This document shows positions 372-47,243 of a DNA stretch of 64,000 nucleotides, one piece after another. The notes below the pieces were generated by a model, which saw only the letters and a list, made by a program, of their open reading frames with translations, was not told where the DNA came from and made no database searches. The number at the start of each line of letters is the position of its first letter. Positions within the stretch are counted from its first letter, which is position 1. The translations under genes and the position numbers were made by a program. The stretch is from Euglena gracilis (Eukaryota), in assembly GCA_039621445.1 (NCBI GenBank), contig CP154954.1, forward strand, positions 26,486,954-26,550,953. The letters are read 5' to 3'.

Positions 372-743
372 AGCTGAAGGGGTGGCCGTGGGCGTGGCGG
401 ATGGCGTGGCGGATGGCGTGGAGGTGGGCGTTGCCGACGGCGTGACGGTCGGCGTGGCGGATGGTGTGGCCGAGGGCGTGGCGGTCGGGGTTGCCGACGG
501 CGTGACAGTCGGCGTGCCGGACGGTGTGGCGGAGGGGGTGGCCGTGGGAGTGGCGGACGGCGTTGCCGACGGCGTGGCGGTGGGCGTGGCCGATGGTGTG
601 GCAGTGGGCGTACTGGAGGGTGTGGCGGAGGGGGTGGCTGTTGGGGTGGCAGAAGGCGTGGCGGTTGGGGTGCCAGACGGTGTGGCAGATGGGGTGGCTG
701 TCGGAGTGGCCGAGGGCGTGGCAGAGGGTGTGCCGGTGGGGGT
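372..743 (-). CDS. Mucin-like gene exon 23 (372 nt); the next intron runs out of the window
   Basis: GCTCTGCTTCTGacccc|ACC ... TCA GCT|gccCAGGACAGA. Confidence 0.85.
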
Positions 744-3700
744 GGGGTCAGAAGCAGAGCTTCAGGAGTCCAATGCGTTATTTTTCTGGCTCTGAAAAAA
801 ATATTCCGTTCCTTCTCCTCCTCTAACCCTTTCCTTTGGGAAGGTGTCTCTTGGCTTGACAGGATACCAAAACAGGTTCTTTCTAGGAATTTTACAGGAT
901 AAGGGTAGTGATCCACCTGGTCCTCTTCTGGGTAGAGAGCATTTGGTTCCTTTCCACTCGAAAATTACAAAACTATCAGCTTTGAACTCCCCAACAAAAA
1001 CGATGACGAACAAGAGACTTCGCACATGGATTGCACTGACAGAATTGTGTGTTCCCTGATCGCTCTGCCCCCGGATATTCACTGGGATGTCTGCACCAGC
1101 CCCCAACCCACCCCAGAGGCAAAACATTAAAGAGATGGGTGTGTGTGTGCTCCAGTGTGGCAAAAAAAAACTAAACTAGGAGAGGTGGCTCCGTCCTGGG
1201 CGGCTGAAGGAGTGGCCGTGGGCGTGGCAGATGGCGTGGCGGATGGTGTGGCGGTGGGCGTCGCCGACGGCGTGCTAGTGGGCGTTGCTGACGGTGTGGC
1301 CGAGGGCGTGCCTGTTGGGGTTGCCGACGGCGTGACGGTCGGCGTGCCGGTGGGGGTGGATGCAGAAACAGACCCCCGAATAAGCACAACTGGTGACCCA
1401 GTGTGGCGAAGTGTTCTGGGCGGGACAGAGTTCTTTTGGCCACCCAATTTTCTCAGTTGCGTCAAAGTCTTGCTGGACATTTGGCAATGTCAAGCACCTC
1501 GAGGACGTTGCGACCAACTCCCCTGCCCTTGGCAACCGGTACAACCATGAAGCTTGGAATGAGGCCCCGTTCAGCCCCGTCTTCGCCCCCAAAGCATTCC
1601 CTGCGAAAGGGAAACCCAGGTGAGTCAGACGAAATCTCAACTGAGGGGCGGAATGGGGGTGGGGGTGGGAGAGGTTAGGGGAAGGGAGGGTCAAAATGCA
1701 AAAAGAAGTGTTGCACTTTGAAGGTATGCAGATTTCTTTAAGGAGTCCCCAGCCCGGCCAGGGTGCTGCCTCATCGCAGGGGGGGGGGTCTTGCCCTCAG
1801 TGCCTTGCTGACTTGGAACACCTCGTTGGGTTCGCCGAAAGCCACCTTCACAAGAAGTCCACAGGGAGTGAAACATAACCTAACTATAAAATGAGAATAC
1901 CCCCCCCGGGGGGGGCACCTGACAGGTTGGCCAGTACCGGAGACCCTGACAACTTCCAATCATGACAGGTTGGCCAGTACCAAGAACCCTGGCAGTTTCC
2001 CGGGTTGGAGATTTGAAGAGAAAGAGAAAGTTAATGAAAATGACCCTTGCAGGTTGGCTGGTACCTGGGGCATGACAGTTTCCCGGGGGGGGGGGGGGGG
2101 AGAACGGGAAGGCTTGGTGGGTGGGGGTCGACCCCCACTCACCACAGCATTTTCACCAGTTTTGGGAAAATGGGGACGTTGCCGGGGCGATTTTAATTTT
2201 TTTGAAAAAATGAACCCAAAATGCATTATTTTTTGATGGAAACCCACATTTTTTCCGCAAAAAAAATCTCAAAAATTTCAGGTTTAAAAATTGGTACTTT
2301 GGGGGGGGGGTGAAAAAAAAAACGAAGGTAAAAAAAATTGTACCAAATTTTGGCACAGTCAAATCTTACTGACATTTTTCTCGTTGAAATTTTTTGGACT
2401 TTCAATTGCATTTTTTTCTTCAAAAACCTCTCAAAATCAAAATTTTGAGAAAATGTTGAAATTTTGGAAGGCTGAAAAAATGGTTTTAGGGGGGTGTTGG
2501 GGGGGACCCCCCGTATGGGTCCCAAAATGGGTGAAAAAACCCCTGGCGCCGAAGGCGGTGGGAAATTTTTTTTCGGGTCCAAAAATTGGTGCTCCCGGAA
2601 ATACGGGAAGAGGTGGCGGGGGGGTCGACCCCCCCACCACCTGGCAGTTCGGCCGATTCCCGTTCTGCTCTGCAGAGAGGGGGGTTAGGTTTAACAGGAG
2701 AGACATGGACACAAACTGGGAACCTGCCTTGACAGTCCAAACCCTCCCCATCCAAAAAAAAATGCACATCGGGGGTGGGGGATGTGACATAGCAGTGGGG
2801 TTCCGTCCTGGGCAGCTGAAGGGGTGGCCGTGGGCGTGGCAGATGGCGTGGCGGATGGCGTGGCAGTTGGGGTCGCCGACGGCGTGCTGGTGGGCGTGGC
2901 AGACGGTGTGGCCGAGGGCGTGCCTGTTGGGGTTGCGGAGGGAGTGGTGGTGGGAGTGCCGGAGGGCGTCGCGGACGGCGTGGCGGTCGGGGTTGCCGAC
3001 GGCGTGGCCGACGGCGTGCCGGTGGGGGTGGCAGACTTGGGCGGCGCAAACCGCCGCCAGCGACCTCACCTGCCGTACCAGCTCACTGCCTTTCCCTCCG
3101 AGGAACTAATATCACCGGGAAACTGGACTCTCATACATTTTCCTGCCGCTGGAGACAACTAGGGGACCTGCTTACGGTGGGAGGTCAACTCCCCCGGGGC
3201 CAGATGCCAAAAACGGACGTGCGAACGCCTTTCTGTGAAAGGGTTTTGGAGGCAAACTCCTCCGCGGGGGATTGACCCTGCGACCTAGGGAGCGGACACT
3301 TCCGAGGTGGGTGGACGTATCTCCCTCTGCGCTTCCGTCTCTGCAGACTGTGTGGACAGTACTAAATGGCAATGACGTCGTGATGGTAATTGTGGTGGTG
3401 GTGATTATTGTGGGCAGGAATCTTTGAGGGAAAGCGATAGGCGTGGGGGGTCATCCCGGAGGATACTTCAATGCCCAAGGTTCAAAATGCCAGAGTCAGG
3501 CTAGGGTTAGGGTTGGGGGGGGGGGAGTGGGTCAATTCAGACAAAAAGACTTGGGACATCCTCACAATTTACAGTTAATCCCAAAAAAAATCAGTGGCTG
3601 GACCCATCAAAGGGGAGGGTTAGACCAGGCAGAATCCTAAAACAAAACCGCAAAAGGCAACTGGGGGAAGATTTTTTCCAGCACTTGCAGCAGGGGAAAA

Positions 3701-6700
3701 TGAAGGAAAGCCCATTGCCCCAAAAACCACATTACTTATATTTTTTCACAAATTTTCGCAAGTTTCTGCCTGTGTTTCTGCATTTCATTCCAAGGAAATA
3801 TCACCTCACCACAAGGTGCCAAAACCAGGCTTATGATACAAGAAGTTGACGGCTTCCCCCAATTTGTGTCCTCTCGCAAACCAGACAATAATTCCAGCAA
3901 TCTCAAGGAGGACCGGTCCCTTTTATTTTCAAAAGGTTTTGATTTAAAAAGAAAGAAAGCAAGAATTGGGAAAAATTACTCTGGCGGTTCTGTCCCAGGC
4001 CTTGTGTCTGCTACCCCAAACACAACCAAAAAAAAGCTGTTGGTAGTTTGCAACGCCCGAAACAGATGGCGTGGCAGTTGGGGTCCCACTTGGCGTGGCG
4101 GACGGTGTGCCGGTGGGCGTCGCCGACGGTGTGCTGGTGGGGGTGCCAGACGGCGTCGCGGAGGGCGTGCCTGTCGGAGTGGCCGAGGGCGTCGTTGTTG
4201 GTGTGCCGGAGGGCGTCGCGGACGGGGTGGCGGTGGGCGTGGCGGACGGTGTGGCGGAAGGCGTGCCGGTGGGCGTGGCGGATGGGGTGGTGGTGGGCGT
4301 GCCGGAAGGGGTGGCGGTTGGAGTGGAGGTTGGGGTGGTGGATGGGGTGGTGGTGGGGGTGCCGGACGGCGTGGCGGAGGGTGTGCCGGTTGGCGTCGCG
4401 GACGGTGTGGCGGAGGGCGTGCCAGTTGGGGTGGGGGCAGAAGCAGAGCTCTGAATGGAAATGGGTCCAAAACGCTTCAGATGATGAAAAAAAGCTCTCT
4501 CTGTTACCCCAAGGTACCAAGGCACGAAGAAAGTGGCAGAATCTTCCGCTCTCCAAATGCCCCACACATATGTCCTTTTGGCCATCTTCCAGCCCCAGCT
4601 CTCGGAGGTTTTAAGATGGTGTGACTTGAAAAGAACTCCAGGGAGGGTGAGAAATGATACAATCGTCACCAGGGAATACACGTCCCAAACATATGGCCCG
4701 TGAATATATGTGTATGTGTGTATGTGTGAATATACATAAACAGCAAAGTTGCGAAACACGCTGTGGGTTGAGTTGCATTTGTGGCAGCCTTAAACTCCTG
4801 CCCTTGGGGGGGGGGTCTCCAGTAAGTGAACGATCGGGGGGATTAGACCACCTGGCGTTTTTCACAACAGGGACCTTTGCTTTTACTTCCCCAAACAAAT
4901 GTGTGATACAGCATCCCTGCTCCTTAGGGTTTTGGTTAATTGTGAGGGATAGGATCATGTTTAGGGTTTGGACTGGGGTTTGGGCTAGAATTTAGGCCGG
5001 TGGGCCCAGATGTAGGCCAGTATTAGGCTTAACTTAATCCAAATTTTGGCCCAGTTTCGGCAGAACCCCCTAACCTCCCAACTTTGGCTGAACCCTAACC
5101 TGCATCGCTCTTAAAAGAAACCACAACCATGATCCTTTGCCTAAAAATACAGAATTCCTCAAAATATGCCGACGTTAGACAATGGACCCCCCCCCACATT
5201 AAACCACAGGGACCCCAGGGGTTTAGAACTCCCAGTTGCACATAGGGTTCTGGCCAGAAGGGTGACCAACCAACCAGGGGGTCGGTTGTTGGACCAGGGG
5301 TCTAGAAAAAAAATGTCGGAGGGCACCCAGGACCCCCAAATAAGGTCAAATTTTCCTTCCGCGCTTTGCGCTGAAAATATTGGACAATTTGATAATTTTG
5401 CTCTATACAATCGTCCCCAGGGAGTACACATCCCAAACATACGGCCTGTGAATATGTGTGTGAATATATATAACATATAATACTATATATAACATATAAT
5501 ACTAAATATAAACAGCGAAGAAACGAAACACGCCGTGGGTTGAGTTGCATGTGGGGGGTCTAAAAGGGTCTAAAAAAAAAGGGTGGAAGGGAACCCGGGA
5601 CCCAAATAAGGTCAATCTTTTCTTTACGCCCTGTGCTTTGCGCCAAAAATTTGGGAAATTTGGTATTGTTTTGCTCAAAAAAAAGTACCAAAATTGGCAT
5701 TTGGCCGATTTTTGGTCGATTTTGGGTACAAAATTTTTCGGTCCGGCGCTCAGCGCCAGGCCAAACCTCTGAAAAAAGTGTCATTCAACCGGGGGGGGGG
5801 GGTCGTTCGACATTGGGGGGTTGTTGGACATAGAGGGGGGAGGAGGGTAGTTTAAGGGTGCCGCTTATGTGTGGGGGTTTCCCAAAGCCTGACTGGTCGG
5901 CCCACCAAACAACCAAAATGATTATTCAACTTGCCATCTGCCCGAAGGGAAAAAGGCAGGCTTAAAACCAAGGGAAGTAAGTTGAGTGATTTCCCCAAAG
6001 AGGGAATTGGCAGGGAGCAGGGAGGGAATTGATATGAAAGGTCTTCGGAAGAACTGTGGGAAAATTGTGGAAAAACTGCGGGAGTTGCAGGTTTGGGGGT
6101 TGGCACACTTCCTCTGGAAGGGACTTCAAAAAATTGCACAAATTTGGCCATTTTGCAACATAGATGTAAATTTTGAGCCGTTATTCACATTCTTTCCAAC
6201 AAAAAGGTCCAAGAAAATGAGTTTTTGTAATTTTGGGAACATGCTGATTCTGGAAATATGGAATTCCTTGGATGAAGCATCCAAAAATGGCAAAAAAAAT
6301 GACAAAAACTTTGTTATCAGGTAGACTATGGTCAGGATGAAAAATTTTCTCAGTCCGAAATTATTTCCCAGCAGAACTCGGGGAAAACACTACAAACAGG
6401 CCAAAAATTTGCCAAAATTTGTTCAAAATTTGCAAATTTTGGCAAATTTTGGCAAGCATGCAACAAAATAAACACTCCCCCCAATAGCACCCCCCCAACC
6501 CCCCCTCGGGGTCCGATTTCGGGGACCGAATTAATACCCCCCCCCCCAATTTCGGGCCAACGACCCAAGAATCACAATCTCTGACAACAAATTACGAAAA
6601 AAAAATATTTTTCTGGATCGTCTGGCCGCCAAAAATGCCAAATTTCATGAAAAAGTGAAGAAAAAAAATACCCCAAAGGGGGTTTTGGGTACTATTTTGG

Positions 6701-9700
6701 GTCCTGCGGGGCTTCAAAGATTTGGAAAATTTTGGGGTGCCATTACCCCCCAAATAACACCCCCCCCTCGGGCCGGGACTTCGAGCGAAAAAAAAATAAT
6801 ACCCGGGGGGGGTATTATTTGAGGGAGGTAAGCAAAAAAAGCACCTGGATGCCCTTATGAAACGTTCGAGAAGTGACCGGAACTCATTTTACCTTTGCAT
6901 TTCAGGTTCAGTCGAAGAAAACTGCAGAAAGGGGGGAAAATGCGGGGAAATTGCAGAAAATTTGTGGAAATTGCGGGGAAATTGCGGAAATCGCGCAAAT
7001 TGCGGAAAATTGCAGAAATTGTGGGAAATTTGCGGATATCAATCCGCCGAGCGGGGGAGGATACGACACAGCAATGGGGCTCCGTCCTGGGCAGCTGAAG
7101 GGGTGGCAGTTGGGGTCCCACTTGGCGTGGCGGACGGTGTGCCGGTGGGCGTCGCCGACGGTGTGCTGGTGGGGGTGCCAGACGGCGTCGCGGAGGGCGT
7201 GCCTGTCGGAGTGGCCGAGGGCGTCGTTGTTGGTGTGCCGGAGGGCGTCACGGACGGGGTGGCGGTGGGCGTGGCGGACGGTGTGGCGGAAGGCGTGCCG
7301 GTGGGCGTGGCGGATGGGGTGGTGGTGGGCGTGCCGGAAGGGGTGGCGGTTGGAGTGGCGGTTGGGGTGGCGGATGGGGTGGTGGTGGGGGTGCCGGACG
7401 GCGTGGCGGAGGGTGTGCCGGTTGGCGTCGTGGACGGTGTGGCGGAGGGCGTGCCAGTTGGGGTGGGGGCAGAAGCAGAGCTCTGAATGGAAATGGGTTC
7501 CAGAAGATCATGAAAGGAAGCTGAGATAAGAATGTCCTCCAAACGAATATCTCCCCCCTTGTCTGCAATGTGGCTATTGGTTTGACGCCTGTTATCCCTT
7601 ATTCTGGCCTGGCGCTGCTTTTCGCCTCTGGCCCTTTTTGTCTGTGTGCGTGGAGGTGGCCGGAGCCTGGCGGGACTGACTTCCTTTACGACGCTGTCCA
7701 CCATGTCCACCAAGTGGCTGCCAGGCACATACTCCACTTTAGTTGGGTGGGGGGTCTTCTTCACCGTGACTACGCTCTGGTAACTCCAGTCCATGACCCC
7801 AGCAGGTGTGGTTCGGACGAGTCCCCTGAGTTGGGAAGGAACTTGTGGGTGGGTCTGTCCTAGGCCCGAAGGCACCTCATGGGGCAGCCCTGTCCCGCGA
7901 GTACACCCACTTGGAATCTGGTCAAGAACCCCCCTCCTGGGGACAAAGGCAAACCTAATTTCACCTACCCCCCCCCCCCCGGAAGCTGTCACCTGAGAGG
8001 TCGGTACGAGACCAGAACAGGGCGTCGCTAAACCATCCAGGGGGGTCCAGCTGAGAGGCTGGAACATATGGGCTGGTTGGGAAAAGGCTGCTAGCTGACC
8101 CCCCCCCCCCACAGGGCTGAAACGAGCCCCGACCCGGGGACGACGACATGGGTGGCAAAAATCGAAACTGCAAAAATGTCCCCCAAAAACAGCCAATTAA
8201 GCAAGAAGTCGATTGTTTGACCGAAAATTATCCTGGCCCGCCCATTTCCGACCCATCTCCTCCCCATTTTTATCCCATTGATTACACCCCAAAAGTAAAA
8301 AAAAAATGGCAGCTGGAAAATAGCTAAAACTCGTCAATGGGGGGGAGGGCGGTTCGACGCTGGAAAAAGCCCCCCCTCCATCCTGGTGGGGGATGGGATG
8401 TCCTCCAGCTAAAGTGATGCATGGCACCGGAAATCCTGACAACTTCCTGCTGTGACAGATTGGCTGGTACCAGGGACCTTGACAATTTCCCAGATGGGAA
8501 ACTGCCAGGTTCCCTTCAGGCTCACTCTGGGAAAACGTTGAACACAAGCATTTTGAAACACTAAAAAAAAGGCCTTAAACTATGGCAACAGAAATTGTGT
8601 GTTTGGGGTCCTTTTCATGCAGACCTTTGTGTTGTTGGTCAGACATGTAAATCAGGTGTTCGACGAAGGGGTTGCCATAACTCTTTTTTAGCAGTGGGCA
8701 AACAATACTCTTTTATTTGATGGATGGATGCAGGATGTGCAATAAGTTATAAAAAGAATGAAACGTAAATGTTGTCACCCGATTATGCGATGTATTTCCG
8801 AGAAGCGAAAAATCGACTCACAAGAATGACGAGGATGTATGAACGCCGAGATGACTGGTGCACTGGTGCAATTCCGCAAAGAAAATTGTGTAAATGACTT
8901 CCAATTCTTTCTCTTCTGAGTCCCCAGAGTTTCATGGGATGGGAATGTTCCCCCTTGTTACCCCAAGGTTCCAAGGCACACAAAAAAAAGTGGCAGAATC
9001 TTCCGCTCTCCAAATGCCCCACACAAATGTCCTTTTGGCCATCTGCCACCCCCAGCGCTCAGAGCTCTTAAGGTGGTGTGACTTGAAAAGAACTGCAGGG
9101 AGGGTAAGAAATGATACAATCCTCCCCAGGGAATACACATCCCAAACATATGGCCTGTGAATATGTGTGTGTGAATATATATAACATAAAAATACTATAT
9201 ATAACATATAATACTAAATATAAACAGCGAAGAAACGAAACACACCGTGGGTTGAGTTGCACGTGGGGGGTCTAAAAGGGTCTAAAAAAAAAGGTTGGAG
9301 GGCACCCGGGACCCAAATAAGGTCAATCTTTTCTTTACGCCCTGTGCTTTGCGCCAAAAATTTGGGCAATTTGATATTGTTTTGCTCAAAAAAAGTACCA
9401 AAATTGGCATTTGGCCGATTTTTGGCCGATTTTGGGTAAAAAATTCTTCGGCCCGGCGCTCAGCACCAGGCCAAACCTCCGAAAAAAGTGTCCTTCGACC
9501 GGGGGGGGGGGTCGTTCGACATTGGGGGGGTTGTTGGACATAGAGGGGGGAGGAGGGTAGTTTAAGGGTGCCACTTATGTTTGGGGGTTTCCCAAAGCCT
9601 GACTGGTCGGCCCACCAAACAACCAAAATGATTATTCAACTTGCCATCTGCCCAAAGGGAAAAAGGCAGGCTTAAAACCAAGGGAAGTAAGTTGAGTGAT

Positions 9701-33700: not shown

Positions 33701-36700
33701 GTGGGTGTTCCGGTTGGCGTGCCAGAGGGGGTACTGGTGGCCGTTACAGACGGCGTGCCGGAGGGGGTGCCGGACGGCGTGGAGGTAGGGGTCGCCGTGG
33801 AGGAGGCGGTGGGCGTGCTGCTCGGCGTGGGGGAGGCTGGGGCCTGGCGCAGGAGTCTGGTGCCGCTGTGCCCCGGGGGTTGCTATTAGGCTCCTTTTTA
33901 AGGCCCCACGGCGCAGGGGGGGGGGGGCACACACCTGGCCTGGACCCACGCCGGGGAGGGGGAGGGGGGTGGCGGAGGCCCCAGAAAATCTGGCTGCCTA
34001 AAATCATTTCGAAAAAAAAATTCGGTTCTTTGCGCCGAAATCCAGACGCGGGCCTCTGGCCCAGGACCCCCTTGGGGGGGGGTCTGGCCCCAGACCCACC
34101 CCCCTCCCCCGGAGGGGGGGTCTTCTGAGTTGAAAAAAATCCTGGTTGGAATACCCCAGGGGGAGGGAACAATGAAATTATTATTATTATATATTATTTT
34201 TCTTAAAATATGCACGATTGCACGGTAATTATACGGGATCATGCGGGGGGGAGGGGGAAGCGGTGGTGAAGACATGTGGGTTGATGGGAAACGATGTGAA
34301 AGAATGGGGGTGAACTGCATGATACTACCCGCGCTTTAAGAACACATGTTTTGCCTCTCTTCCCAGGTGGAACCCCCCCCCAACAAATAATGAAGCCCCT
34401 GAGGACCGACTTTGACAGCCTAAATAATAGCCCTCCCTTTGAGTCAAATGAAAAAGAATCACCGAGATCACCAGAGACATGGAAAATCACAAAAATCAAA
34501 AATTGGGTGGGAATAACAAAAAGAAAGGCACCCATTGCACAAAAAAAAGTATGAAGAACCAAAGAAAGAGGGGACTAGGCCGAGTGCATCTTTTTTGGGT
34601 CAATTCTCGATCTCAAAAATTACTCGACATCCTGAGGGATAATGCAGACCGCAGGGCTTGCACAGGATGGTGATCTTTCCCTCTCTGGACCCCACCAAAA
34701 AACATACCAGGGCATATTCAACTTGTCAAATGCTGTTCCTCAGAAAAATCTGAATAGGTGGGGCTTTCACAGGGATTTCAACCTCTCCTTTTGAACCCTT
34801 GAGTCCAAGCAACGCTGGGAACAAGAGCGGCAATCTCTGCAGAACGAGCGGCAGCCTGCAATCAATTCTCTTTTGCCCTTGCTGTTCCCTTTTGAATTTT
34901 GAGATTTTAAACTTCCAGGCGTTCTTGCAACCAAATCGTTTTTTTTACCCCAGCTGTGGAGAGGTGGTCCCTGGGGGGAGGGGGTGGTCCTTGGGAAAAC
35001 CAAAACATAACCTTAAAAAAACAAAAAACCTCAAAACAAAAAAATTTATTTATTTATTTATTATTTATTATTATTTATTTATTTATCCACATGCCAGGGT
35101 GTGGCAGTGGCGGTGTGGGTGGTGGTGCTGGTGGGGGTGGGGGTCGGGGTGCTGGACAGCGTGGCGGTAGGGGTCGCAGTGTCGGTTTCCGAGGCGGTGC
35201 CTGTGGTGGAGGGGGTGGCGGAGGGAGTGGCGGAGGGGGTAGCGGTAGGGGTGCTGGAGGCGGTGGCGGTGGGGGTGGAGCTGGTTGTCGGTGTCGCGGT
35301 GCCGGTTGAGAGCTGGAGCCCATTCAATGGTTTGCCCAGATGGAAGGGGTAATTGTGGGTGGGTCATTCTCAACCTGCACCTTGCAGGGTCGCACGCTAC
35401 ACCAGAAAAAACCCCACATATTCTGCTGCTGGTCGGAGCTTGCCAGAAGAGGTGGCCAGCAACTGAATCGTCTCAAACCATCAGAGAAAAATCAGGTGAT
35501 TATGAATAGGGCCCATGTCGAGGTTCTGGTCGTGGTCGGGGTGGAAGTATCGGTGGCGGTGCGGGTGGGGGTGGGGGTGGGGGTGGGGGTGGGCGACGGG
35601 GTGAAGGTGGGGATGACGGTCAGGGTGCCACTAGCGGTGGGGGTGTCCGTCTCCGTGACCGTGTCAGTCTCCGTGGGGCTGGCTGTGGAGGTCGCGGTCC
35701 GGGTCGGAGTACTGGTGGGCGTGGCGGTGGCCGTCGCTGTGCCTGTGGAGGTGATGGTGGCGCTGGGAGTTTGGGTCGGGATGACAGTGGCGGTTTGGGT
35801 GCTGGTGGATGTGCCCGTGAGAGAGGTCGTCCCCGTAAAAGTACGTGTTGTGGTTGGGGTTGCGGTCTCTGTGGCGGTTGCTTCTGCAACCCACCTTCTT
35901 CCCCCAGGGGGAGGGGGGTTCAGCCAGATATGGATGCAAACATTCAAGCCATTGAGAAAACAATGTAAATTTTCCGGGGACCACCCCAATGCTGTCCCCA
36001 GGGACCACCATTTCAGGATGGAACAATTTGATTTCTCCCTTTTTAATTAGTTTTGTACGCTATTGCACCATTTCACCACACAGAAAACAACCAATTTATT
36101 TATTATTATTTATTTATTTATGCCCAAAAATTAACGAAATCTGAAAACTGAAACACTTGCTTCTCCTATAGTTTGTTATGTTGGTTGCCAAATCACAATC
36201 CCAAGGGAGGTCTTTGAGTGAGTGGGGTGCACATTTACCTTTTCCATTGAAAAAAAAACTCGGCAATTCCATTTGAAGATATAACTTCCAAAATGTGATA
36301 AAAATTAAAAAACTATCTGTGTTTTAAGAGCAGCAATTTTTGATTTCCTCGATAAAATATACCCTTCCTGAATATTCACCCCATAGTCATTAGAATTCTG
36401 CCCAAAGAGAAAACATAACGCCGAACCTCCCCTCCTGTTTGACTTAAGGGCAAGAAGCAGGGGGTGCTGATTTGGCCAAAAATATAGACCCAAAACAGAA
36501 TAAACGGGGTGGTGGGTTGACAAGGGGGAACCTGAATTAAAAAAAATATATATTCTTCGCACTTTACTTTTCTTCCATTTTTGGTATCCATTTTGGGGGG
36601 AAATTGACAATATCTCACCGACAAAACATGTTGGCTTTGCTTTCAGTATAAATTTTTATTATTTGAATTTGTTAAATAAAATTATTAAATTTTGGGTTTT

Positions 36701-39700
36701 CGTTATTTAACTGTCCAAAGAGTGCAAAAGAGCCTAACCTCCCCACTCATGAACCCCCCACTTTTAACCATACATCTCTTTAAGGACCCCGGGGGGGGGG
36801 ATGCTGGGCTAGGGCTAGAAATTTGGGCTGGCTAGCCCGCCCCCCCCCCCCCCGGGGGGGGGGGGGGGCTGGGCCCCGGCTGGACCGAACCGGGGCGAGC
36901 TGGACTGAAATCGGAAAAATGCCCAAAAATGACCTGTAGAACACAGTTTTGAAAAAATGATGCATCTGAAACCCCCCAAAAATGCCCCAAACGCCCCCCA
37001 AACCCCATTTTTGGCCACTTTTGAACACAGTTTTTCAAAAAATTTCGGCGCTTCGCGCCGAAAAATGTTGGGCTGGACCCCCAAAAAAGGGGCTGGCTAG
37101 CTGGGCTAGCAGCACCCCCCCCCCCGGGGGGGGGTGCTGCTGCGGCTGGGCTGGGCCCAAATCGGGGCTGGCTGCAGCCGCCCCCCCCCGGGGGGGGGGG
37201 GGGTTCGCAAAACCTTAGAGAGATGTATGCTTTTAACCCTCCACTTATACCCTCCCTCGGGCCAACCAGCCAAACCTTGACTATAAACCCCCCTGGAGAA
37301 GAAAATGAAAGTTGCCAAGGACAATTTTTTCGGCTGCAAACCACCTAAAAACTGATATTTTGGCAATTTCTTGAGACTGACAAAATCAAAAATGCCATAT
37401 TTGCCGAAAATTGCCAATTTGGGGGGGTCATTTTGGTGGATCGGATTTTCACCAACAATTCCTTGACTTATAACCCCCTCTTCCGCCGACCAACCAAACC
37501 AGATCCTATAACCCGGGGGGTTTGTAGGTGGGGGGGGGGCATTTGTTAATATTTTGTGCTTCGTTTCCTTCCCTTTTACATTCCCATGTGCCTGGGGGCA
37601 ACATCTGCTTTCAGAGCTTTCAGAACTTTTGTGTTCCTTTTGTTGAGAGATAAATTATCAATTCCTTCCAGTCAAATTTTATGAAGGATTCCTGTAAATA
37701 TAGGTAAAAGTATATAAACATGTTGATACATGGATATAGATATAAAGCTACGTGTGATACACATGGCAGATGTACTTCGTGGCCACCCCTCCCGGTTAGA
37801 GGGGTGACCTGAGGTTCTGGCACTGAGCGTGGACGTTCTCTTTCAGTGTCACCTTTGCTGACTTCCCTGCAGTGACCACGCAATGTCCGTGGGTCGTGGT
37901 GCGCTTCTCCCTCCACGATCTGGCGCATGTTCTCTCTCACCCGCATGGCACCACCTCCCTGGAGGTGTCCTACAGGTTGATTCCATGTCCCCGTTGTTCG
38001 CGCCCGACCCTCCACCGTGTGGACGGGGCCCAGGACAGTGGCAGTCGGCTGCAGCTGGCTGCCGGAACATGAGCTGCATTCACACCAGGGGCTTGCGTGC
38101 CGCTTTCGCCCCAAGCGGCTGTGCAAATCAAAAGCTTGACTAGCAATGTGCGCGACACAACCTGGCGCCTGAACGATCTGCTACATCTGGCGTTCGTCCG
38201 GTCGCGCGGCCACAGCCCGGAGGAGATCGAGCAGTTGATCCAGTGCGGGCGGCGGCAGCTAATGCACCTCTGCATTTTGCTGCATAGTCCCCATCCCGGT
38301 GGAGCGGAACATCTCCCATGGCAGGGCGTAGGGGGGGGGGTGCCCTGGTGAAGGTGGAGGTGGACGAGATAGAGCTGGGCTGGCAGGCATCCACCGCCAT
38401 GGCCTGCTGACTGTCCAAGAGGGGCAGGGCACTTGCGCAAACTCTTCAGGGCCATCCTGGATGGCGGGGCGCTTCTGCCAACTTGCACGGTGCCACCACA
38501 TGGCAGGGCACGGCTGTGGGGTGTCCGCGCGCCACGAGGTGCTGTGCAGCCGCCGGTGCACAATCTCCATTAACTGAGTTGAGGGACTGTGGGGCCGCTG
38601 AAAACCTGGCTCCGCACCAAAGACAGCATTCCTGCGGGGGCACCGACCCGACTACGTTGGGGAATGCGAATCACTTGTGAACACCCATGGCGATGATCGC
38701 TTCCTCTTGGGGCTGGAGGCCATCCGCTGGGTCAGCCTGCAGGACTGACCTAACTACCACCACCACACTCACTAGCCGCACACCATACTGTTATCTCTCA
38801 GGGCTGCGAAGGCGACATATCCTGTTCACCAGTCAGCATCCACGGTCAGTGCTATAGGTTCAACCTTAGCAACCCCTGACCGGGGGGGGGGGGTAGCCAA
38901 AAGGTACCTATTGCATACAGGCAGGCAGGCAGGCAGGCAGATACAAGGCAGCCAGGTAGGCAGGTACGATGTAGGTAGGTGGGTGGGTAGGAAGGTGAAC
39001 CCCCCCACCCGAATATAAGAAACCCTCAAATATAAGCAAACCCTGACTGGACGATGTGAAGGAATTCTCATTAAAAACAGAGTAAAATGGCAGAAATCAG
39101 CGAATTCCAAATTTCAGCAACCCCAACATATGAGCCCATTTTCGGAATCCCAAATTCAAACATCCGGTTGCTTATATCTGGGGCCGACCCAAAATTGGCC
39201 AAAGGGTTGCTAATATTGGGGGGTTAGGTAGGTAGGTAGGTCGGTAGGTAGGTAGGTAGATAGATAGGTAGGTAGGTAGGTAGGTAGGTATGTAGGTAGG
39301 TGGGTAGGTAGGTTGGTAGGTAGGTAGGTAGGTAGGTAGGTAGGTAGGTAGGTAGGTAGGTAGGTAGGTAGGTAGGTAGGTAGGTAGGTAGGTAGGTAGG
39401 TAGGTAGGTAGGTAGGTAGGTAGGTAGGTAGGTAGGTAGGTAGGTGGGTGGGTGGGTGGGTAGGTAGGTAGGTAGGTAGGGTGGTAGGTAGGGTGGTAGG
39501 TAGGTAGGTAGGTAGGTAGGTAGGTAGGTAGGTAGGTAGGTAGGTAGGTAGGTAGGTCGGTAGGTAGGTAGGTAGGTAGGTAGGTAGGTAGGTAGGTAGG
39601 TAGGTAGGTAGGTAGGTAGGTAGGTAGGTAGGTAGGTAGGTAGGTAGGTAGGTAGGTAGGTAGGTAGGTAGGTAGGTAGGTAGGTAGGTAGGTAGGTAGG

Positions 39701-42700
39701 TAGGTAGGTAGGTAGTTAGGTAGGTAGGTAGGTAGGTAGGTAGGTAGATAGGTATGTAGGTAGGTAGGTAGGTAGGTAGTCAGGTAGGGTGGTAGGTAGG
39801 TAGCTAGGTAGCTAGGTAGGTAGGTAGGTAGGTAGGTAGGTAGGGAGGTAGGTAGGTAGGTAGGTAGGTAGGTAGGTAGGTAGGTAGGTAGGTAGGTAGG
39901 TAGGTAGGTAGGTAGGTAGGTAGGTAGGTAGGTAGGTAGGTAGGTAGGTAGGTAGGTAGGTAGGTAGGTAGGTAGGTAGGTAGGTAGGTAGGTAGGTAGG
40001 TAGGTAGGTAGGTAGGTAGGTAGGTAAATAGGTAAGTAGGTAGGCAGGTAGGTAGGTGGGTGGGCAGGCAGGCAGGTTGGCAAACAGGCAGGTAGGCAGG
40101 CAGGTAGGTGGGTGGGAAGGGAGGAAGGAAGGAAGGGAGGTAAAAACATAGGTGGGTATGTGGTGTGTTCCTCTGTTGCTTCCTTGCTGTTTTGTTCTTT
40201 TACACAAGGCATATTGCCATGTTCTGGGCTCCAAGGAAGAATGATTCCGACCTTCCTGAAGAATGCCAGCATGAAGATGAGAATTTATGTATGTTGCACC
40301 ATCAACACTTTACCTTCTGTTGAAATGCCCATTCGCTGCAACGTCATCCCATGCAAGGCCCCTTTTTACTGTATGGATTGGCTGCTGATGCTGACGAAGA
40401 ACTGTTCAGATAATTTGCAGCCACAACTGACAAAAAATAAAGTGCAAAAATGAAGTGTAACATGTTTACCGATTGGGATTAGGCAGACCCCTAATTTGCA
40501 ATTGAATATAACCCCCCTCTGGGGAAGCGCCCACAGGCACCGTTCGTGCGGCGCAAGACAAAAAAAATCTGAAAATGCAGCACGTTTTGGCTTTTGAGCT
40601 GGTCTGCGCTGGTGCCCAAAAGAGCAAAAGCAGGGTCAGCAATTCTCTCATCCAAAAAAATAACGAAGAAAACTGGCGGGAACCTTTGCTTGCCCTTGCA
40701 AGAGCAAAAAACAGTCACTCCCAAGTGCGACTGGGTTATCCCATGACTTCTCCAGGTGGCTGTGTTTTATTAGGCTCAACCCCCAAAAAATGCCATCAAG
40801 CAAAGCATTTGCGGAGGGGGGGGGGGGGCAATGCGCTCTGGAGCCGAACGTAGGCCGAATTTTGGGAAAATCCTGACAAAAGCGCACCATAAGAGTCTTC
40901 CGAAACAGGGACCTAATTTGCGACCTAACTCCTGTCCGAAATGCGGCCATTCTCGGCGCGCCAATCCTAATCCTAACCCTATTCCTAAAAATAATTTCCA
41001 ATCCTAACGGAATTAAACAAAATTAGCCCGGCTCCGGCGCGGTTCTGCGGGGCCACAGGACCGAAAAGTCGGAAAGTTAGACCCGGGTGCTGCCATACCC
41101 CTCCCCCACTGGAGAGTCTAAAGCCCCCCCCCAGCAGGGCCTTAAGAATCCTGCTGGCTCAGAAGTTCAGAAGGGTGTTGCTTGGATAATTTTTCAAACT
41201 CAAAATGCCCGCTAATATGCACTCTCTATATACAAAGAAATGCATAATTGGTACTTTGGCTTCCATCGCCACTGATTCACTTTCATTGAGCCACCATTTT
41301 TGGCAAAAAATATGGTACCTTCTGAGAAGTGAATGCCAAAAATCCTGAGTTTCACAAATTTTTTTTCCGCACAATACAAGTGAATTATTTGGGTGTCGTA
41401 AAAGTGGAAGGTTAGCTTTTGGGGGTTGTTGAGAGGGATACAAAAAAATGCCAAATCCCCATCTTCGCAATAACTCGCAGCCTCCAATAATGGCTCACTA
41501 TCCGAACAATGAAATCTTCACCTCTTATGAGGAATGCGTGACGTCAGGGGTATCACCCGAGACATCTGATTGCTGGGAGAATTCTGCCAGTCAAGGTGAG
41601 CAGCGGTCATGGAGGTGGTGGAGGTGATGGAGCTGCTCCGGGTGAACGTCCGGGTCGGGGTCGGGGTGGCCGTGGAGGAGCTCGTGATGCTGGTGGTCGT
41701 GGTGGGGCTGGCGGTGGCGGTGGTCGTGGACGTGATGGTGGCGCTGCGGGTGCGCGTGCCCGTGGAGGTCGCGGTGGTGGTGGGGGTGGCCGTCACCGTG
41801 GACGTGATGGTGGCGGTGCGGGTGCGGGTGGAGGTGCCGGTGGAGGTCGCGGTGGTGGTGGGGGTGGCAGTAGTTGTGGACGTGATGGTGGCGGTGCGGG
41901 TGCGGGTGGAGGTACGTGTAGGAGTCGCCGTGTCCGAGCTTGTTATGCTGGCACTGGGGGTGCTGGTGGTGGTGCTGGTAGGAGTTGTTGTCAGAGGTTT
42001 ATTCTTGAGACCCACAGGAGGGGGAGTTAGCACCCATCTGTCCACCCCCCTGGAGGGGGGGGTTGGGGGGGGGCAGTAGGGTCCAGGGATGTATGATAAA
42101 TCCTGGGGGGGTCCGGACCGCCTCCTAACACAGACTGGGGGGGGGGGGTCAGAAGCCCTCCCACCCAGGGCGTTGCTTAAAGATCCCCCTTGGGGGTCCA
42201 CCTCAAGCTCAGAGGCTGGAAAACTTGGGCTTTCTTTTAGAAGATTTTTCGTTTTTTATTTTTTTCTCGTATGAAAAATAAAAACGTCCAAAAAATGTGC
42301 TTAAAAGTGGGGGGAAAGCAAACTTCTGCAAAAGAAATTTTTTCTCCAATTTTAGACCAAGGAGGGGGATCCGGACACCCCCTCCCAACATCTGGGGGGG
42401 GACTGACGGGCTTCCCATGCATCGCTGGGGTACTCAGTGAGAGGGGGAGGAAGGGGTAGGGCCCAACCGGGAGTCCAAACGTCAAAAAGGCCTCTGGTCG
42501 CCGTATCTGAGGCCGTGAGTGTGGAACTGGGGGTGCTGGTGGAGGTTCGGGTGGGGGTTGCCGTCGTGGTGGGGGTGGCGGTTGACGTGGCACTTATGGT
42601 GGCACTGCGGGTGAACGTGCCGGTTCTGGTGAAGGTGGCCGTCGCGGTGGGGGACGCCGTTGCGGTGGCGGTGGTGGTGGAGCTCGGGGTGAGCGTGCTG

Positions 42701-45512
42701 GTTCGAGTGAGGGTTGCCGTTCTGGTGGGGGTTGCTGTGGAGCTGGGGGTGGCGGTTGCCGTGGAGGTTATGGTGGCGCTGCGGGTGAACGTGCCCGTCC
42801 TTGTGGGGGTGGCCGTGGCCGTGGCGGTGGCCGTTCTGGTTCTGGTGGTGGTGGAACTGAGGGTGGACGTCCTGGTTCGGGTGGAGGTTGCGGTTGCAGT
42901 TGGGGTGGCGGTGGTCGTGGCCGTTAGGGTGGCCGTCCGGCTGCGGGTGGAGGTGCTGGTCGGGGACGCCGTTCTTGGAGGCAGGGCCGGAACCGCACCT
43001 TTCCGCCACTCGGAAAGGAAAAGGCAACACATCCACTCCACTCCGCTTTTGTTTCATTGGGAGTGGGGTTAGAGTCTTCATCGCTTTCTCAATTGCCTTC
43101 ACGGTGACCACCCCAGCGGTGACAAAACCTGTGTATCATCCGCCACCAGCATTCCCATAACCACCACCCCCACAATGAAGAAAAAAAACCACACTTTTTC
43201 AGAAAAAAATGCAAAGCTGATGTTTTGGGTTCTGAGGTCATTTCGGGGAGCCCGACCCGAGTTTCACCAACAGTTCCTGGATTTATCCCCCTCACTGATA
43301 ACCCCCCCCCCTTCAGCTGACTCACCAAACCTAATCCTGCAAACTGAGGGTTGGGAAAGGGGGGGAGGGGGTTACAACAGCAGGGTCCAAAGAAAAGAGC
43401 GACTCCCCTCTGACAGAACGAGCATCCATTACATGAGCACCCCTCTACAATTCAAAATTCAGACAGCCATTCAACAGAGACGGACAATGTATGGTTGCAA
43501 TTGACCTAAAAAGGCAAACTCTAACATATAAAAAAAAACAAAGCAAAATGGCGCATTTTTCTCTCGACGCGTTTTGCTCAAAAAGCTCTGGCTCATGCTG
43601 AATGAAGCAGCAAAAAGAAAGGTACCCAATGTCCAGAACAGGGTCCCCCTGGCTAAAGCATAGATCCACAACAAGAGCATCCGACAAACGGGGAGGGGGG
43701 CAATCTCACACTCAACAGGTGGTGGGCTCAGGGGCATTTCTGCAACCATGCAATTGCTGTTTTTTGAAAGTCATGAGCGTGACATTCGTAGTCACACACA
43801 CGTAGCACATTCGTAAGCACCTTAGCAAGGTTCGTAAGCACCTAAGCAAGGGGACGGGCACCGCTGCACACAGGCAGCCTCCCGGCCCGACCCTGGCCGT
43901 CGGGGTCGCGGAGACAGTCGGCGAGAGGGTGGCCGTCTCCGATGCGGTGTCCGTTTCCGACGGGGTGCTGGTGGTGGTGGTGGTGGGCGTCGGAGTGGGG
44001 GCGGCTGCGACGGGATGGAGGGGCCGGCGGAAAGGAGGGTATTTGCTGACGGCTTCAACTGCCCCCCCGCCGCCTGCCCACTCCCCATCCCGTTCCCCGC
44101 GACCACCGACGCCCACCAGCGCTTTCCGCGTGAGTTCGCACCCCTGTGTGCAACGTTGGGGCTGTGGACGGGAGGCAGTGGCATTAGAAAGTGTTTGGGC
44201 CGCTCGGAGGCGCGCCGCCCAGTCAGCCCAATGCGGTCGCCAGCGACGTTTTGCAGACTTGCGCATTTTGCGTTCCATTTGTTCGAAATATTTCCCGAGA
44301 CACGTTCTCGACAGCAGTACAAACAAAAAGACCAAGTTCTGAGTCAGAATATACGTCGTAAGAATAAATTGCAACCAAATGTGTCCAAAAATACGAACTG
44401 TGTGACAGAACTGTGGATATCTCGTGATTTGAAGACGCGGTGCCCCTCAGGGTCAAAGCAAGCCATTTACTTTTTTGGACGGTGACGTTGACTTTCGCAC
44501 CTCACAATAACCTCCAAATTTGATCAAAATCTGAAATCAGATCTGTTCTCCACTGTGGTGAATGCCCATTCTTTTGTCCCAGCAGAATTGCTCCATGCCA
44601 GGATTGAACATAAGACAAGGTGGCCCAGGGGGCCAATATACGGCCATCAAGGCACAAAAAGTATTTTTTGAGAATTTGGCAATAAATATATAAACCCTTC
44701 AATGAATTTTGTCCTCCATGGTCGGAAGTATGAGGGTCAATGTGTTTTCTATTGCTATTTTGGGTAAGTTTTCTCTCAGATCGAGATGGGCACGAAGCGT
44801 GATGGGCTGTGTCCAAGCTTGTGTAGCCTTTCATCAAGATCTCTAGGTCTCTGGTGGGATTCCTCAAAGGCCCCACAGGGTTCAGCCAGCCAACCAGCCA
44901 ACTGGGGAGGTCGCGTGGCTGGACCCCTCCCCCCAGAGTCCAGTGTGCTCAGCCGCATGCCGGAAAGGACTGGCTGGCAGCAAAGAAAAGCCCAAATTCG
45001 ACTGGTTTGATCTTAAAGCAGCAAAAAAAAACAACCTCAAAACCCTGAAAAAAACCAATGTCAACCATTCTTCTAAATATATTTGTTATTAGTTAAATAT
45101 AATATCTAATATATCTAAATATATTTATTATAAATATAAATTTGTCCAGAGTTTATTTCGGGACCCCGGGGCCAGGGAAGGGGGGCCGCAGCCCCGTTGG
45201 CAGAGGCTGGCCTCCACCCCTTCCGGCGGCGGAAGGAAAATCCCTGACCCAGATCCAACAATTTTGGCTTGGATGCTGGGGGGGGGGGGCTGGTCACTTC
45301 TGTGGTTGCAGATTGACAATCCGATGGTTCAATGCGATTCATACAGATGCAAAGCAGATGGGCTTAGCATACGCGCATCCACGATGAAGCCAGCCACAGG
45401 AACGTGCGCCCCCCCCCGCCCCTCTCACGGCCATCGACGGAAGGGGCACACCTGCTTCGGGGCCTGGCATCAGCCACAGCAGCAGGAGGAGCCACAGACT
45501 CCACCGCGGCAT
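372..45512 (-). CDS. Gene span: predicted secreted Thr/Pro/Ser-rich mucin-like surface glycoprotein, 23 exons in window (5955 nt, 1985 codons), 3' end beyond window start
   Basis: Exons were joined using one GT-AG intron and 21 non-canonical stem-bounded introns. The result is one frame: [33 protein letters not shown]...(TATATPTRT)n...(TPSA/TPTG)n. Every junction continues the peptide repeat. The product name is inferred from composition only. Confidence 0.85.
1202..1357 (-). CDS. Mucin-like gene exon 22 (156 nt)
   Basis: GGGGTCTGTTTCTGcatcc|ACC ... TCA GCC|gccCAGGACGGAGC. Confidence 0.85.
2814..3032 (-). CDS. Mucin-like gene exon 21 (219 nt; upper boundary 3035 if the nearby AG is used)
   Basis: GTTTGCGCCGCCCAagtct|GCC ACC ... 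TCA GCT|gccCAGGACGGAACCCC. Confidence 0.8.
4064..4432 (-). CDS. Mucin-like gene exon 20 (369 nt)
   Basis: CTTCTGccccc|ACC ... CCA TCT|gttTCGGGCGTTGCAAAC. Confidence 0.85.
7093..7464 (-). CDS. Mucin-like gene exon 19 (372 nt)
   Basis: Same junction motifs as exon 16. Confidence 0.85.
9733..10023. mobile_element. MITE, hAT-like (16-bp TIR CAGGCTTCTTTTTAAG, 8-bp TSD GAGCAGGG)
   Basis: Perfect TIRs and TSD. Empty site in the paralogous copies near 6015, 13734 and 17450. Confidence 0.95.
11105..11476 (-). CDS. Mucin-like gene exon 18 (372 nt)
   Basis: Same junction motifs as exon 16. Confidence 0.85.
14820..15191 (-). CDS. Mucin-like gene exon 17 (372 nt, near-identical to exons 16, 18, 19)
   Basis: Same junction motifs as exon 16. 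Confidence 0.85.
17663..18073. mobile_element. TA-flanked MITE (Tc1/mariner-like target), TIR C(n)TATGTCC
   Basis: TA duplicated at 17661-17662 and 18074-18075. The other three repeat copies read TTTTG-TA-ATTTTGGG uninterrupted. Confidence 0.9.
19041..19412 (-). CDS. Mucin-like gene exon 16 (372 nt)
   Basis: CTTCTGccccc|ACC CCA ... TCA GCT|gccCAGGATGGAGC. (TPSA/TPTG)n. Confidence 0.85.
20619..20834 (-). CDS. Mucin-like gene exon 15 (216 nt)
   Basis: GCTCTGCTTCTGccccc|ACC ... TCG GCC|gccCAGAAAGGAGCC. Confidence 0.85.
21146..21554. mobile_element. MITE, hAT-like (TIR CAGGCTTTTGCTCAAGG / CCTTAAGCAGAAGCCTG, TSD GTTGGCAC)
   Basis: Perfect 8-bp TSD. Related partial copies near 52455-52679 and 56365-56710. 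Confidence 0.9.
21789..22007 (-). CDS. Mucin-like gene exon 14 (219 nt)
   Basis: TTTGCAGCACCCAAattcc|GGC ACG ... TCA GCC|ggcCAGGACGGAGC. Confidence 0.85.
24287..24655 (-). CDS. Mucin-like gene exon 13 (369 nt)
   Basis: GCTCCGCCCCTGccccc|ACC ... CCA TCT|gttTCGGGCGCTGCAAA. Confidence 0.85.
25797..25952 (-). CDS. Mucin-like gene exon 12 (156 nt)
   Basis: GGCCCTGCCACTGcagcc|ACC CCG ... TCC GCC|tccCAGGGCAGAGC. Confidence 0.85.
26592..26817 (-). CDS. Mucin-like gene exon 11 (226 nt)
   Basis: GCAACTCTGgccct|G CCC TCC ... TCC GCT|gtcCAGTGCAGAGCC. Confidence 0.85.
28461..28606 (-). CDS. Mucin-like gene exon 10 (146 nt)
   Basis: GCTCAGCCCCTGccccc|ACC ... GAT AC|gtcCAGGGCTGC. Confidence 0.85.
29605..29900. 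mobile_element. MITE, hAT-like (TAGGG...CCCTG termini, TSD GCCGAGAT)
   Basis: Perfect 8-bp direct repeat at 29597-29604 and 29901-29908. Poly-C/poly-G body. Confidence 0.85.
30099..30293 (-). CDS. Mucin-like gene exon 9 (195 nt)
   Basis: CCGTCTAAatcct|GCC ACG ... TCT GCT|gctCAGGGCTGAGC. Confidence 0.85.
30684..30977. mobile_element. MITE, same family as 9733-10023
   Basis: Identical TIRs and near-identical body. TSD AACCTTGT/AACCTTGA (7 of 8 match). Confidence 0.9.
32138..32218 (-). CDS. Mucin-like gene exon 8 (81 nt)
   Basis: GCTTTGCCCCTGcgccc|ACC CCC AGC ... CCT TCT|gttTTAGGCGG. Confidence 0.8.
33416..33549. repeat. (CACT)n microsatellite
   Basis: Direct reading. Confidence 0.95.
33685..33838 (-). 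CDS. Mucin-like gene exon 7 (154 nt)
   Basis: GCCAGgcccc|A GCC TCC ... TCC GCC|gccCAGGGCAATGC. Confidence 0.8.
33887..34144. mobile_element. Older MITE (TAGGCTCCTTTTTAA...TTGAAAAAAATCCTG)
   Basis: Degenerate TIR resembling the 9733 family. Flanks GTTGCTAT/GTTGGAAT (6 of 8 match). Confidence 0.7.
35101..35307 (-). CDS. Mucin-like gene exon 6 (207 nt)
   Basis: GGGCTCCAGctctc|A ACC GGC ... GCC AC|accCTGGC. Confidence 0.8.
35520..35879 (-). CDS. Mucin-like gene exon 5 (360 nt)
   Basis: AAGGTGGGTTGCagaagc|A ACC GCC ... ACC TC|gacaTGGGCCC. Confidence 0.8.
36769..37229. mobile_element. MITE, hAT-like (TIR CATACATCTCTYTAAGG, TSD CTTTTAAC)
   Basis: 17-bp TIR with one mismatch and a perfect 8-bp TSD. 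Confidence 0.9.
37830..38760 (+). pseudogene. Possible decayed non-LTR retrotransposon 3' fragment
   Basis: GC-rich coding-like island with broken frames, a [10 protein letters not shown]...C knuckle-like remnant and a [17 protein letters not shown] end. No RT motif seen. Confidence 0.3.
39225..40110. repeat. (TAGG)n microsatellite, ~0.9 kb
   Basis: Direct reading. It is the source of the LPTY ORFs. Confidence 0.97.
41609..41986 (-). CDS. Mucin-like gene exon 4 (378 nt)
   Basis: CCTCTGacaac|A ACT CCT ... TCC AT|gaccGCTGCTCACCTT. Confidence 0.8.
42500..42976 (-). CDS. Mucin-like gene exon 3 (477 nt)
   Basis: CGGTTCCGGCCCTGcctcc|A AGA ACG ... ACG GC|gacCAGAGG. Thr-rich TATATPTRT repeats. Confidence 0.85.
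43899..44004 (-). CDS. Mucin-like gene exon 2 (106 nt)
   Basis: Acceptor ...catcccgtcgcag|CC GCC CCC ACT. Ends CCG AC|ggcCAGGGTCGGGCCG. Confidence 0.85.
45452..45512 (-). CDS. Mucin-like gene exon 1 (signal peptide [20 protein letters not shown])
   Basis: ACCACCATG start context and a hydrophobic Leu/Trp core. Ends GCA G|GTGTGC (phase-1 GT donor), matching the phase-1 acceptor at 44005. Confidence 0.8.
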
Positions 45513-47178: not shown

Positions 47179-47180
47179 TA

Positions 47181-47243
47181 ACCCTGGCCCTAACCTAACC
47201 CTAACCCTGACCCTAACCTTAGCCCTAACCCTAACCCTAACCC
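47181..47243. repeat. Interstitial telomere-like (CCCTAA)n tract
   Basis: About 10 perfect or degenerate CCCTAA units. Confidence 0.75.

Follow-up and report, generated by a model that had tools for sequence, protein, structure and literature searches.

A stretch of 64,000 nucleotides of the Euglena gracilis genome (hereafter the window; positions 26,486,954 to 26,550,953 of contig CP154954.1, assembly GCA_039621445.1) very probably carries, on its minus strand between about 44.0 and about 0.3 kb, a tandemly expanded gene for a mucin-like Thr/Pro/Ser/Ala repeat protein of at least about 2000 residues, interrupted by 21 ordinary euglenid nonconventional (NC) introns. On the plus strand, the corresponding region (about 0.3 to 44 kb) shows a persistent excess of G over C and contains about 22 blocks of G+C-rich repeat with periodicities of 9, 12, 36 and 60 nt. 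Translated from the minus strand, these blocks give (T/S)P(S/T)(A/G/...) repeats, the four 5'-most blocks being Thr-rich and less regular. The blocks lie in differing frames and are separated by stop-rich spacers of 0.2 to 5.7 kb, and a single product therefore requires splicing.

The junctions were rebuilt from the anchors provided by an earlier note on this DNA, namely 743/1202, 26817/28461, 35307/35520, the intron at 3033-4063, the 'tcc' at 25796, the lengths of 212 and 5729 nt, and the protein junction SDTA/TPTST (within sequences, a slash marks a junction). The criteria were frame continuity, zero stops and pairing in the register that joins intron position +4 to position -6. One self-consistent minus-strand set, consisting of 21 introns (i02 to i22, Table 1) and an additional donor-like site at 372/371, satisfies every anchor. 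All intron statistics given here refer to these model junctions on the minus strand, with coordinates in plus-strand numbering. From the sequence, read together with the literature on euglenid introns, we infer minus-strand transcription and splicing at exactly these junctions. Summed lengths are 37,739 nt for the introns and 5,416 nt for the 20 internal exons. Between the stop upstream of 44446 and position 372, the frame comprises 2112 codons and is open through all 21 junctions. A frame of 1985 codons had been announced: its openness across every junction holds, but this exact number was not reproduced. It would match a start near 44065, the 5' exon start being unspecified in the earlier note.

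The borders of these introns are those of a single class. None of the 21 has GT-AG or GC-AG ends (a GT start occurs in five, an AG end in none), in agreement with what had been claimed for introns 2-22, and the reported length range of 212 to 5729 nt is likewise recovered. A pyrimidine is followed by a purine (Y/R) at 21/21 acceptors and at 20/21 donors, or 21/22 when the site at 372 is counted, with C/T at 25796 as the exception; both figures stand as first described, and so does the presence of CAG at +4..6 with CTG at -8..-6 in 15 of the 21 introns. Considered position by position, the first base of the downstream exon is a purine in 21/21 cases, intron +1 is a purine in 20/21, and both exon -1 and intron -1 are pyrimidines in 21/21, whereas the background frequency of the YR dinucleotide is 0.27 in exons and 0.21 in introns. 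The strict code N3-CDG...CH'G-N5/R fits 16 of the 21 introns, 15 through CAG...CTG and one, i06, through CTG...CAG. The GT-starting introns (i08, i10, i11, i13 and i20) end in CT or CC and possess terminal stems. Thirteen introns are slidable by 1-4 nt and the other eight are not.

The two ends of each intron are complementary, and this complementarity is specific to the cognate partner. The best duplex between the first and last 30 nt holds the pairs of the +4:-6 register in 19/21 introns, as the earlier note had proposed. One exception is the intron at 3033-4063, which had been described as one base off register and is indeed offset by one in all of its 19 pairs; the other is i16 (19040..15192), which prefers another register. 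When intron ends were co-folded with their own or with permuted partners, a comparison also suggested by the earlier note, the cognate mean was -20.4 kcal/mol, against -16.5 +/- 0.7 kcal/mol for permuted partners, and none of 20000 permutations reached the cognate value. Control duplexes gave -11.0 kcal/mol for internal intron segments and -9.4 for exon flanks. Among the 19 distinct end pairs, 89 of the 95 cells formed by +4..+8 and -6..-10 are paired, compared with 70.3 +/- 2.6 after permutation (0/5000) and with 29-56 in slid registers. Position +7:-9 is G-C, G-T, A-T or T-A in 18/19 of these end pairs, and +8:-10 is G-C, A-T, C-G or G-T, again in 18/19. Since both positions stay paired via four pair types each, they covary. 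Four of the five introns that lie outside the strict code have long stems, with energies of -20 to -33 kcal/mol, and the end duplexes of i08, i13 and i20 reach z scores of -4.2 to -4.8.

These 21 introns are not independent observations, because their ends fall into 7-13 lineages and four of them are tandem copies. When the first 17 and last 18 nt are combined, the introns form 13 clusters at 80% identity, 9 at 70% and 7 at 60% (random 35-mers have a mean identity of 25%, with a 99.9th percentile of 51%). By eye, three families of ends can be recognized. Family A, gcccaggacggagcccc / gctctgcttctgccccc, includes i14-i19, i21, i22 and the site at 372. Family B consists of i09 and i12, with i02, i07, i10 and i11 as looser members, and family C of i13 and i20. 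The locus had been called internally replicated, which is true, in the sense of paralogy among 7-13 lineages. Within family A, the exons have a consensus fraction of 0.88-0.89, and the intron ends are similar, with 0.85-0.97 at +1..+17 and 0.90-0.93 at -18..-1; the value falls to 0.50-0.55 deeper inside the introns, compared with 0.47-0.50 at random. Introns i16-i19, the four tandem copies, are 94-98% identical; the other interiors are unrelated, save for a 300-nt dispersed repeat that i08 and i18 have in common. This pattern shows that about 17-18 nt at either end of an intron are under apparent constraint (purifying selection). The sequence pattern, the complementarity of cognate ends and the conservation of intron ends are directly observed. 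The dispersed repeat itself (9733-10023 in i18 and 30684-30977 in i08, 90.7% identity) may be a fragment of a mobile element.

Family-A acceptors present an additional feature, two code-compliant sites that lie 6 nt apart, ctgcttct/G and ctgccccc/A, and are both in frame. The two-acceptor motif, ctgcttctgccccc, is found for example at 15192-15205, 11477-11490, 7465-7478 and 4433-4446. Alternative use of these acceptors could add or drop Ala-Pro.

Table 1. Model introns, exons and repeated units of the putative repeat-protein gene (minus strand, plus-strand numbering)
Feature	Position	Strand	Characteristics
Exon upstream of i02, 3' part	43899..44010	-	Frame open up to 44446
i02	42977..43898	-	922 nt; N3-CAG...CTG-N5/A; 10-bp stem from +4:-6; phase 2
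i03	41987..42499	-	513 nt; CAG...CTG; SDTA/TPTST junction
i04	35880..41608	-	5729 nt; without CDG...CHG; 11 pairs in +4:-6 register; contains (TAGG)n array
i05	35308..35519	-	212 nt; ATG...CAG; one mismatch to code
i06	33839..35100	-	1262 nt; inverted CTG...CAG
i07	32219..33684	-	1466 nt; CAG...CTG
i08	30294..32137	-	1844 nt; GT start, CT end; without CDG...CHG; stem -30.9 kcal/mol, z -4.5
i09	28607..30098	-	1492 nt; CAG...CTG; stem -31.9 kcal/mol; without in-frame GT-AG alternative
i10	26818..28460	-	1643 nt; GT start; CAG...CTG
i11	25953..26591	-	639 nt; GT start; CAG...CTG; second code-compliant acceptor at 25959, 6 nt upstream
i12	24656..25796	-	1141 nt; CAG...CTG; sole non-Y/R donor (C/T, 'tcc')
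i13	22008..24286	-	2279 nt; GT start; without CDG...CHG; 12 pairs in register; z -4.2; paralog of i20
i14	20835..21788	-	954 nt; family A ends
i15	19413..20618	-	1206 nt; family A ends
i16	15192..19040	-	3849 nt; family A; tandem copy
i17	11477..14819	-	3343 nt; family A; tandem copy
i18	7465..11104	-	3640 nt; family A; tandem copy
i19	4433..7092	-	2660 nt; family A; tandem copy
i20	3033..4063	-	1031 nt; GT start, CT end; stem one base off register, 19 pairs, -32.6 kcal/mol
i21	1358..2813	-	1456 nt; family A ends
i22	744..1201	-	458 nt; family A ends
Thr-rich, less regular exons	42500-42976, 41609-41986, 35520-35879, 35101-35307	-	From frame and translation
(T/S)P(S/T)(A/G) exons, part 1	33685-33838, 32138-32218, 30099-30293, 28461-28606, 26592-26817	-	From frame and translation
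(T/S)P(S/T)(A/G) exons, part 2	25797-25952, 24287-24655, 21789-22007, 20619-20834	-	From frame and translation
Four 372-nt exons	19041-19412, 14820-15191, 11105-11476, 7093-7464	-	From frame and self-comparison
Further 3' exons	4064-4432, 2814-3032, 1202-1357	-	From frame and translation
Putative last exon in window	315..743	-	Contains decayed donor-like site 372/371
Tandem exon+intron units	5405..19429	-	About 3.7-4.0 kb each; three to four units, 94-98% identical (self-comparison)

A number of results weigh against a gene with NC introns at these junctions. The strict code is unmet in five of the 21 introns (i04, i05, i08, i13 and i20), and its specificity is weak, with 2-42 compliant candidates per intron within +/-45 nt of the model junctions. 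When code and pairing energy are applied without the frame, the model junction comes first in just 3/21 introns, so that 'defined', the word used by the earlier note for the relation of the introns to the stem and junction rule, is too strong. De novo prediction of junctions by the code alone returned hundreds of candidates per interval, and a search that took the longest uninterrupted stem within +/-70 nt was noisy, being dominated by low-complexity G/U pairing. Compared with dinucleotide shuffles, the end duplexes have a mean z score of only -1.6, and those of i16-i19, the four tandem copies, score about -1 or weaker. In minimum free energy (MFE) folds of whole introns, the +4:-6 helix is absent from i05, i22 and i03 (212, 458 and 513 nt), and two of these three folds are no better than shuffles (z -0.41 and +1.63); in that of i03, the 3' CUCUG has an exon CAGA as its partner. 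The conservation of the 17-18 nt at the intron ends might alternatively reflect a coding role of these nucleotides. If motif quality is ignored, in-frame, stop-free GT/GC-AG pairs are found in 21/21 intervals, and in i16-i19 such a GT-AG alternative would be in frame while adding 13 residues between the repeat blocks. Finally, the plus strand likewise has an open frame in every exon, and the antisense frame that is locked to the minus one runs for 2076 codons without a stop.

Three other explanations must therefore be weighed. The ordinary spliceosome could remove some of the intervals at nearby GT-AG sites, the conserved 'intron ends' being in reality coding, which would likewise account for the conservation at +1..+17 and -18..-1. 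This is unlikely, and i16-i19 are its clearest case. Their alternative donor GCT/gtgtcg, 23 nt inside the model intron (first intron base 19017, 14796, 11081 and 7069), matches 4/5 positions of the E. gracilis GTGTG consensus. Their alternative acceptor ...cattcagag/, 16 nt before the model end (last intron base 15208, 11493, 7481 and 4449), has 9/12 pyrimidines upstream. In addition, no other introns of the set have NC stems as weak as theirs (-12.5 to -14.4 kcal/mol, ranks 13-14 of 21). However, this GT donor and AG acceptor are not kept in i14, i15, i21 and i22, whereas the NC elements are kept in all of them, and the conserved 5' and 3' elements covary in a manner that preserves pairing, which coding constraint does not predict. 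An attempt to rule out GT-AG splicing by open reading frame (ORF) logic alone failed on the in-frame options mentioned above. Some in-frame GT-AG option with at least 4/5 donor matches and at least 8/12 pyrimidines occurs in 12/21 intervals, but only in i16-i19 does the alternative adjoin the repeat blocks. The other nine intervals offer no decent in-frame GT-AG option, and i05 and i09 have none of whatever quality.

Alternatively, the array could be a decaying or silent repeat locus whose 'introns' are never excised. A repeat that is stop-free in several frames on both strands leaves a long ORF with little weight, one exon-bearing ORF has no Pfam domain, the two exons searched gave no related protein beyond low-complexity matches, and the upstream scan identified no start codon or signal peptide. 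Such a locus is nevertheless very unlikely: terminal elements are conserved as strongly as the exons, interiors have diverged to random, complementarity is specific to cognate ends and the frame is kept at all 21 junctions. Extremely unlikely, too, is a plus-strand gene for a Gly/Val/Ala/Asp-Glu repeat, with the same stems, NC introns read oppositely and junctions shifted by 2 nt. The antisense frame spans 372-44446 and shares its third codon positions with the minus frame. Intron lengths are equal in either reading, the frame is kept both ways, and the CAG...CTG motif is strand-symmetric. As both strands are open, ORF length decides neither strand nor function and is weak coding evidence; only the asymmetry of the NC consensus decides the strand. 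With the helix fixed, the four border classes (in order, a pyrimidine at exon -1, a purine at intron +1, a pyrimidine at intron -1 and a purine at exon +1) occur in 2, 18, 5 and 7 of the 21 introns when the plus strand is read, but in 21, 20, 21 and 21 when the minus strand is read. On the plus strand, a purine would start the downstream exon in just 2/16 code-type introns. By contrast, it does so in 55/55 introns reported by Milanowski et al. (2016, PMC4770533), and C at this position is described as not tolerated in the knock-in tests of Nomura et al. (2025, PMC12501133).

The minus-strand gene with NC introns can be compared with the introns of euglenids described in three publications. In the 55 introns analysed by Milanowski et al. 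(2016, PMC4770533), pairing between +4-6 and -8--6 was the most conserved element, with CAG and CTG in 33/55. Intron +1 was R in 51/55, the start of the downstream exon R in 55/55, and the upstream exon end and the intron end Y in 49/55 each. Positions +7/-9 were often G/C, and compensatory changes were found between homologous introns. A GT at the intron start was regarded as a mere purine preference at +1, not as the mark of a separate class. Genome-wide, Gao et al. (2024, PMC11170887) listed 28,337 introns of E. gracilis, of which 4,498 + 11,653 = 16,151 are NC, a share of 57% (arithmetic on their Table 1). Their NC consensus is CCAGG at +3..+7 and CCTG at -9..-6, and their conventional 5' splice site is GTGTG. 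For E. agilis, Nomura et al. (2025, PNAS, PMC12501133) found 71.8% of 649,158 junctions to be nonconventional and 84% to be slidable. By knock-in mutagenesis and synthetic introns, they established the code 5'-N3-CDG.../...CH'G-N5-6/R (the last slash being the junction), with CTG...CAG as the only swapped form still spliced. Pairing behind the motif was also needed, and the last exon base at the donor had no nucleotide requirement. Their code covers 61.2% of NC introns and leaves 38.8% outside, and excision of the intron as a circle is cited.

The present introns resemble these in most respects, and their type, taken by itself, would suggest a euglenid host. As in the code of Nomura et al. (2025), 16/21 have the exact N3 and N5 spacers and a downstream purine, with pairing that continues behind the motif; i06 bears the CTG...CAG inversion, and 13/21 are slidable (84% in E. 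agilis). By contrast, i04, i05, i08, i13 and i20 have no CDG...CH'G and would join the 38.8% outside the code. Another difference is that the introns described here are predicted from sequence; they may already be listed in Datasets S5-S8 of that study. Similarities with the set of Milanowski et al. (2016) include the frequency of CAG...CTG (15/21 here, 33/55 there), the same border classes, frequent G/C at +7/-9 and compensatory changes among homologous introns. These homologs are, however, paralogs produced by unit duplication within one gene rather than orthologs from different strains, and the downstream exon mostly begins with ACC or GCC instead of R-A-C, AAC being limited to i03-i05. The introns i08, i10, i11, i13 and i20, with a 5' GT, a nonconventional 3' end and a stem, are similar to the intermediate/nonconventional introns of the same authors, and nothing here argues for GT-starting NC introns as a separate class. 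As to the conventional introns of E. gracilis (Gao et al. 2024), lengths are within the published range and an in-frame GTGTC...AG option exists in i16-i19, but GT/GC-AG is found in 0/21 model junction pairs. Terminal pairing energies are in or beyond the range reported by Gao et al. (2024) for NC introns, not in that for GT-AG introns.

Every element of the rule proposed by the earlier note is thus already in print. Its description of the locus as an unusually dense dataset is not supported by this comparison, nor would be a claim that the dataset is new and valuable, NC introns already amounting to 57-72% of Euglena introns and the rule having been published in 2016 and 2025. With these shares and 7-13 lineages, the probability of an all-NC run is about 0.0007 to 0.10 (arithmetic), which is unremarkable among tens of thousands of genes. 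The statement that the excision mechanism is unresolved remains accurate, as the trans-acting factors are still unknown according to the Discussion of Nomura et al. (2025, PMC12501133). The locus is another example of a class catalogued across whole genomes, with hundreds of thousands of junctions, whose cis code has been worked out through genome editing, and does not open the question of mechanism. Its residual value is that paralogous NC introns within one gene show constraint on their ends and covariation, and that the matching of 5' to 3' ends could be followed naturally in a tandem array whose ends are interchangeable.

If the published chemistry applies, the ends of each intron would base-pair in the pre-mRNA through a helix starting at +4 and -6. 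Three nt at the 5' end and 5 nt at the 3' end would remain unpaired, and the two Y/R junctions would be brought side by side. A non-spliceosomal machinery would then cut both junctions and join the exons, and the excised intron would probably be released as a circle. For these introns, the chemistry of cutting and joining is taken from the literature and thus presumed by analogy. The gene itself probably grew through tandem duplication of exon-plus-intron units, in which case most introns would be paralogs whose terminal elements of about 17-18 nt were inherited along with the exon.

Such a history would raise the question of partner choice. Eight introns (i14-i19, i21 and i22) share near-identical stem-forming ends, and within family A a donor pairs with a downstream non-cognate 3' end at least as stably as with its cognate in 17/28 combinations. 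Of the 20 internal exons, 16 have a length that is a multiple of 3 nt. If end pairing sets the choice of partner, the gene should give in-frame exon-skipped isoforms and hence a mucin-like protein of variable length, an expectation that we hold as tentative and rather doubtful. Alternatively, another rule, such as nearest partner or co-transcriptional folding, would enforce cognate pairing. Either outcome would reveal how the machinery picks the partner end, which synthetic single-intron assays cannot do.

At the 3' side of the gene, the 22nd donor-like element (372/371) has diverged from family A at stem positions. Within 1-371, none of eight CTG-N5/6/R sites makes a convincing acceptor for it: the best gives -14.3 kcal/mol, and none continues the repeat. 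Reading through past 372 gives a 19-residue tail with a hydrophobic end, before a stop at 315-317. We infer that 315..743 is the last exon and that the donor at 372/371 is a relic. The hydrophobic tail may serve the mucin-like protein as an anchor signal, either for a membrane or of GPI type. At the 5' side, no start codon with a signal peptide was found upstream of 44010. An Rfam scan of the window returned no match and no marker RNA, and a Pfam scan of 10 ORFs, one of them exon-bearing, returned no match. Exon 35522-35878 had no match among 8000 candidates in a search for proteins of near length. Exon 42502-42975, compared with longer proteins, gave 50 matches, none of which is a copy of the gene; they are partial or low-identity alignments to Thr-rich low-complexity sequence (32-73% identity), 10 of them without a reported alignment.

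Several other repeats are present in the window. Two microsatellites lie inside introns. A (TAGG)n array of about 230 copies (39225-40142, 92% matches) is located in i04 and gives, on the minus strand, an open LPTY repeat in several frames, and an (ACTC)n array of about 34 copies (33416-33549) is located in i07. Beyond the 5' end of the gene model, TAACCC is repeated 11 times at 47179-47243, corresponding to the complement of an interstitial TTAGGG-type telomere repeat. A direct duplication of about 0.95 kb (58222-59899, 81.5% identity) contains Pro/Ser-rich open frames on the minus strand. Finally, a unit of 35 nt is repeated in tandem about 60 times at 60052-62624, with a 105-nt higher order (G+C 0.76 in the 60-62 kb bin). 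On its minus strand, a Pro-rich frame is open for 957 residues, and the array may be either a second repeat-protein gene or a satellite.

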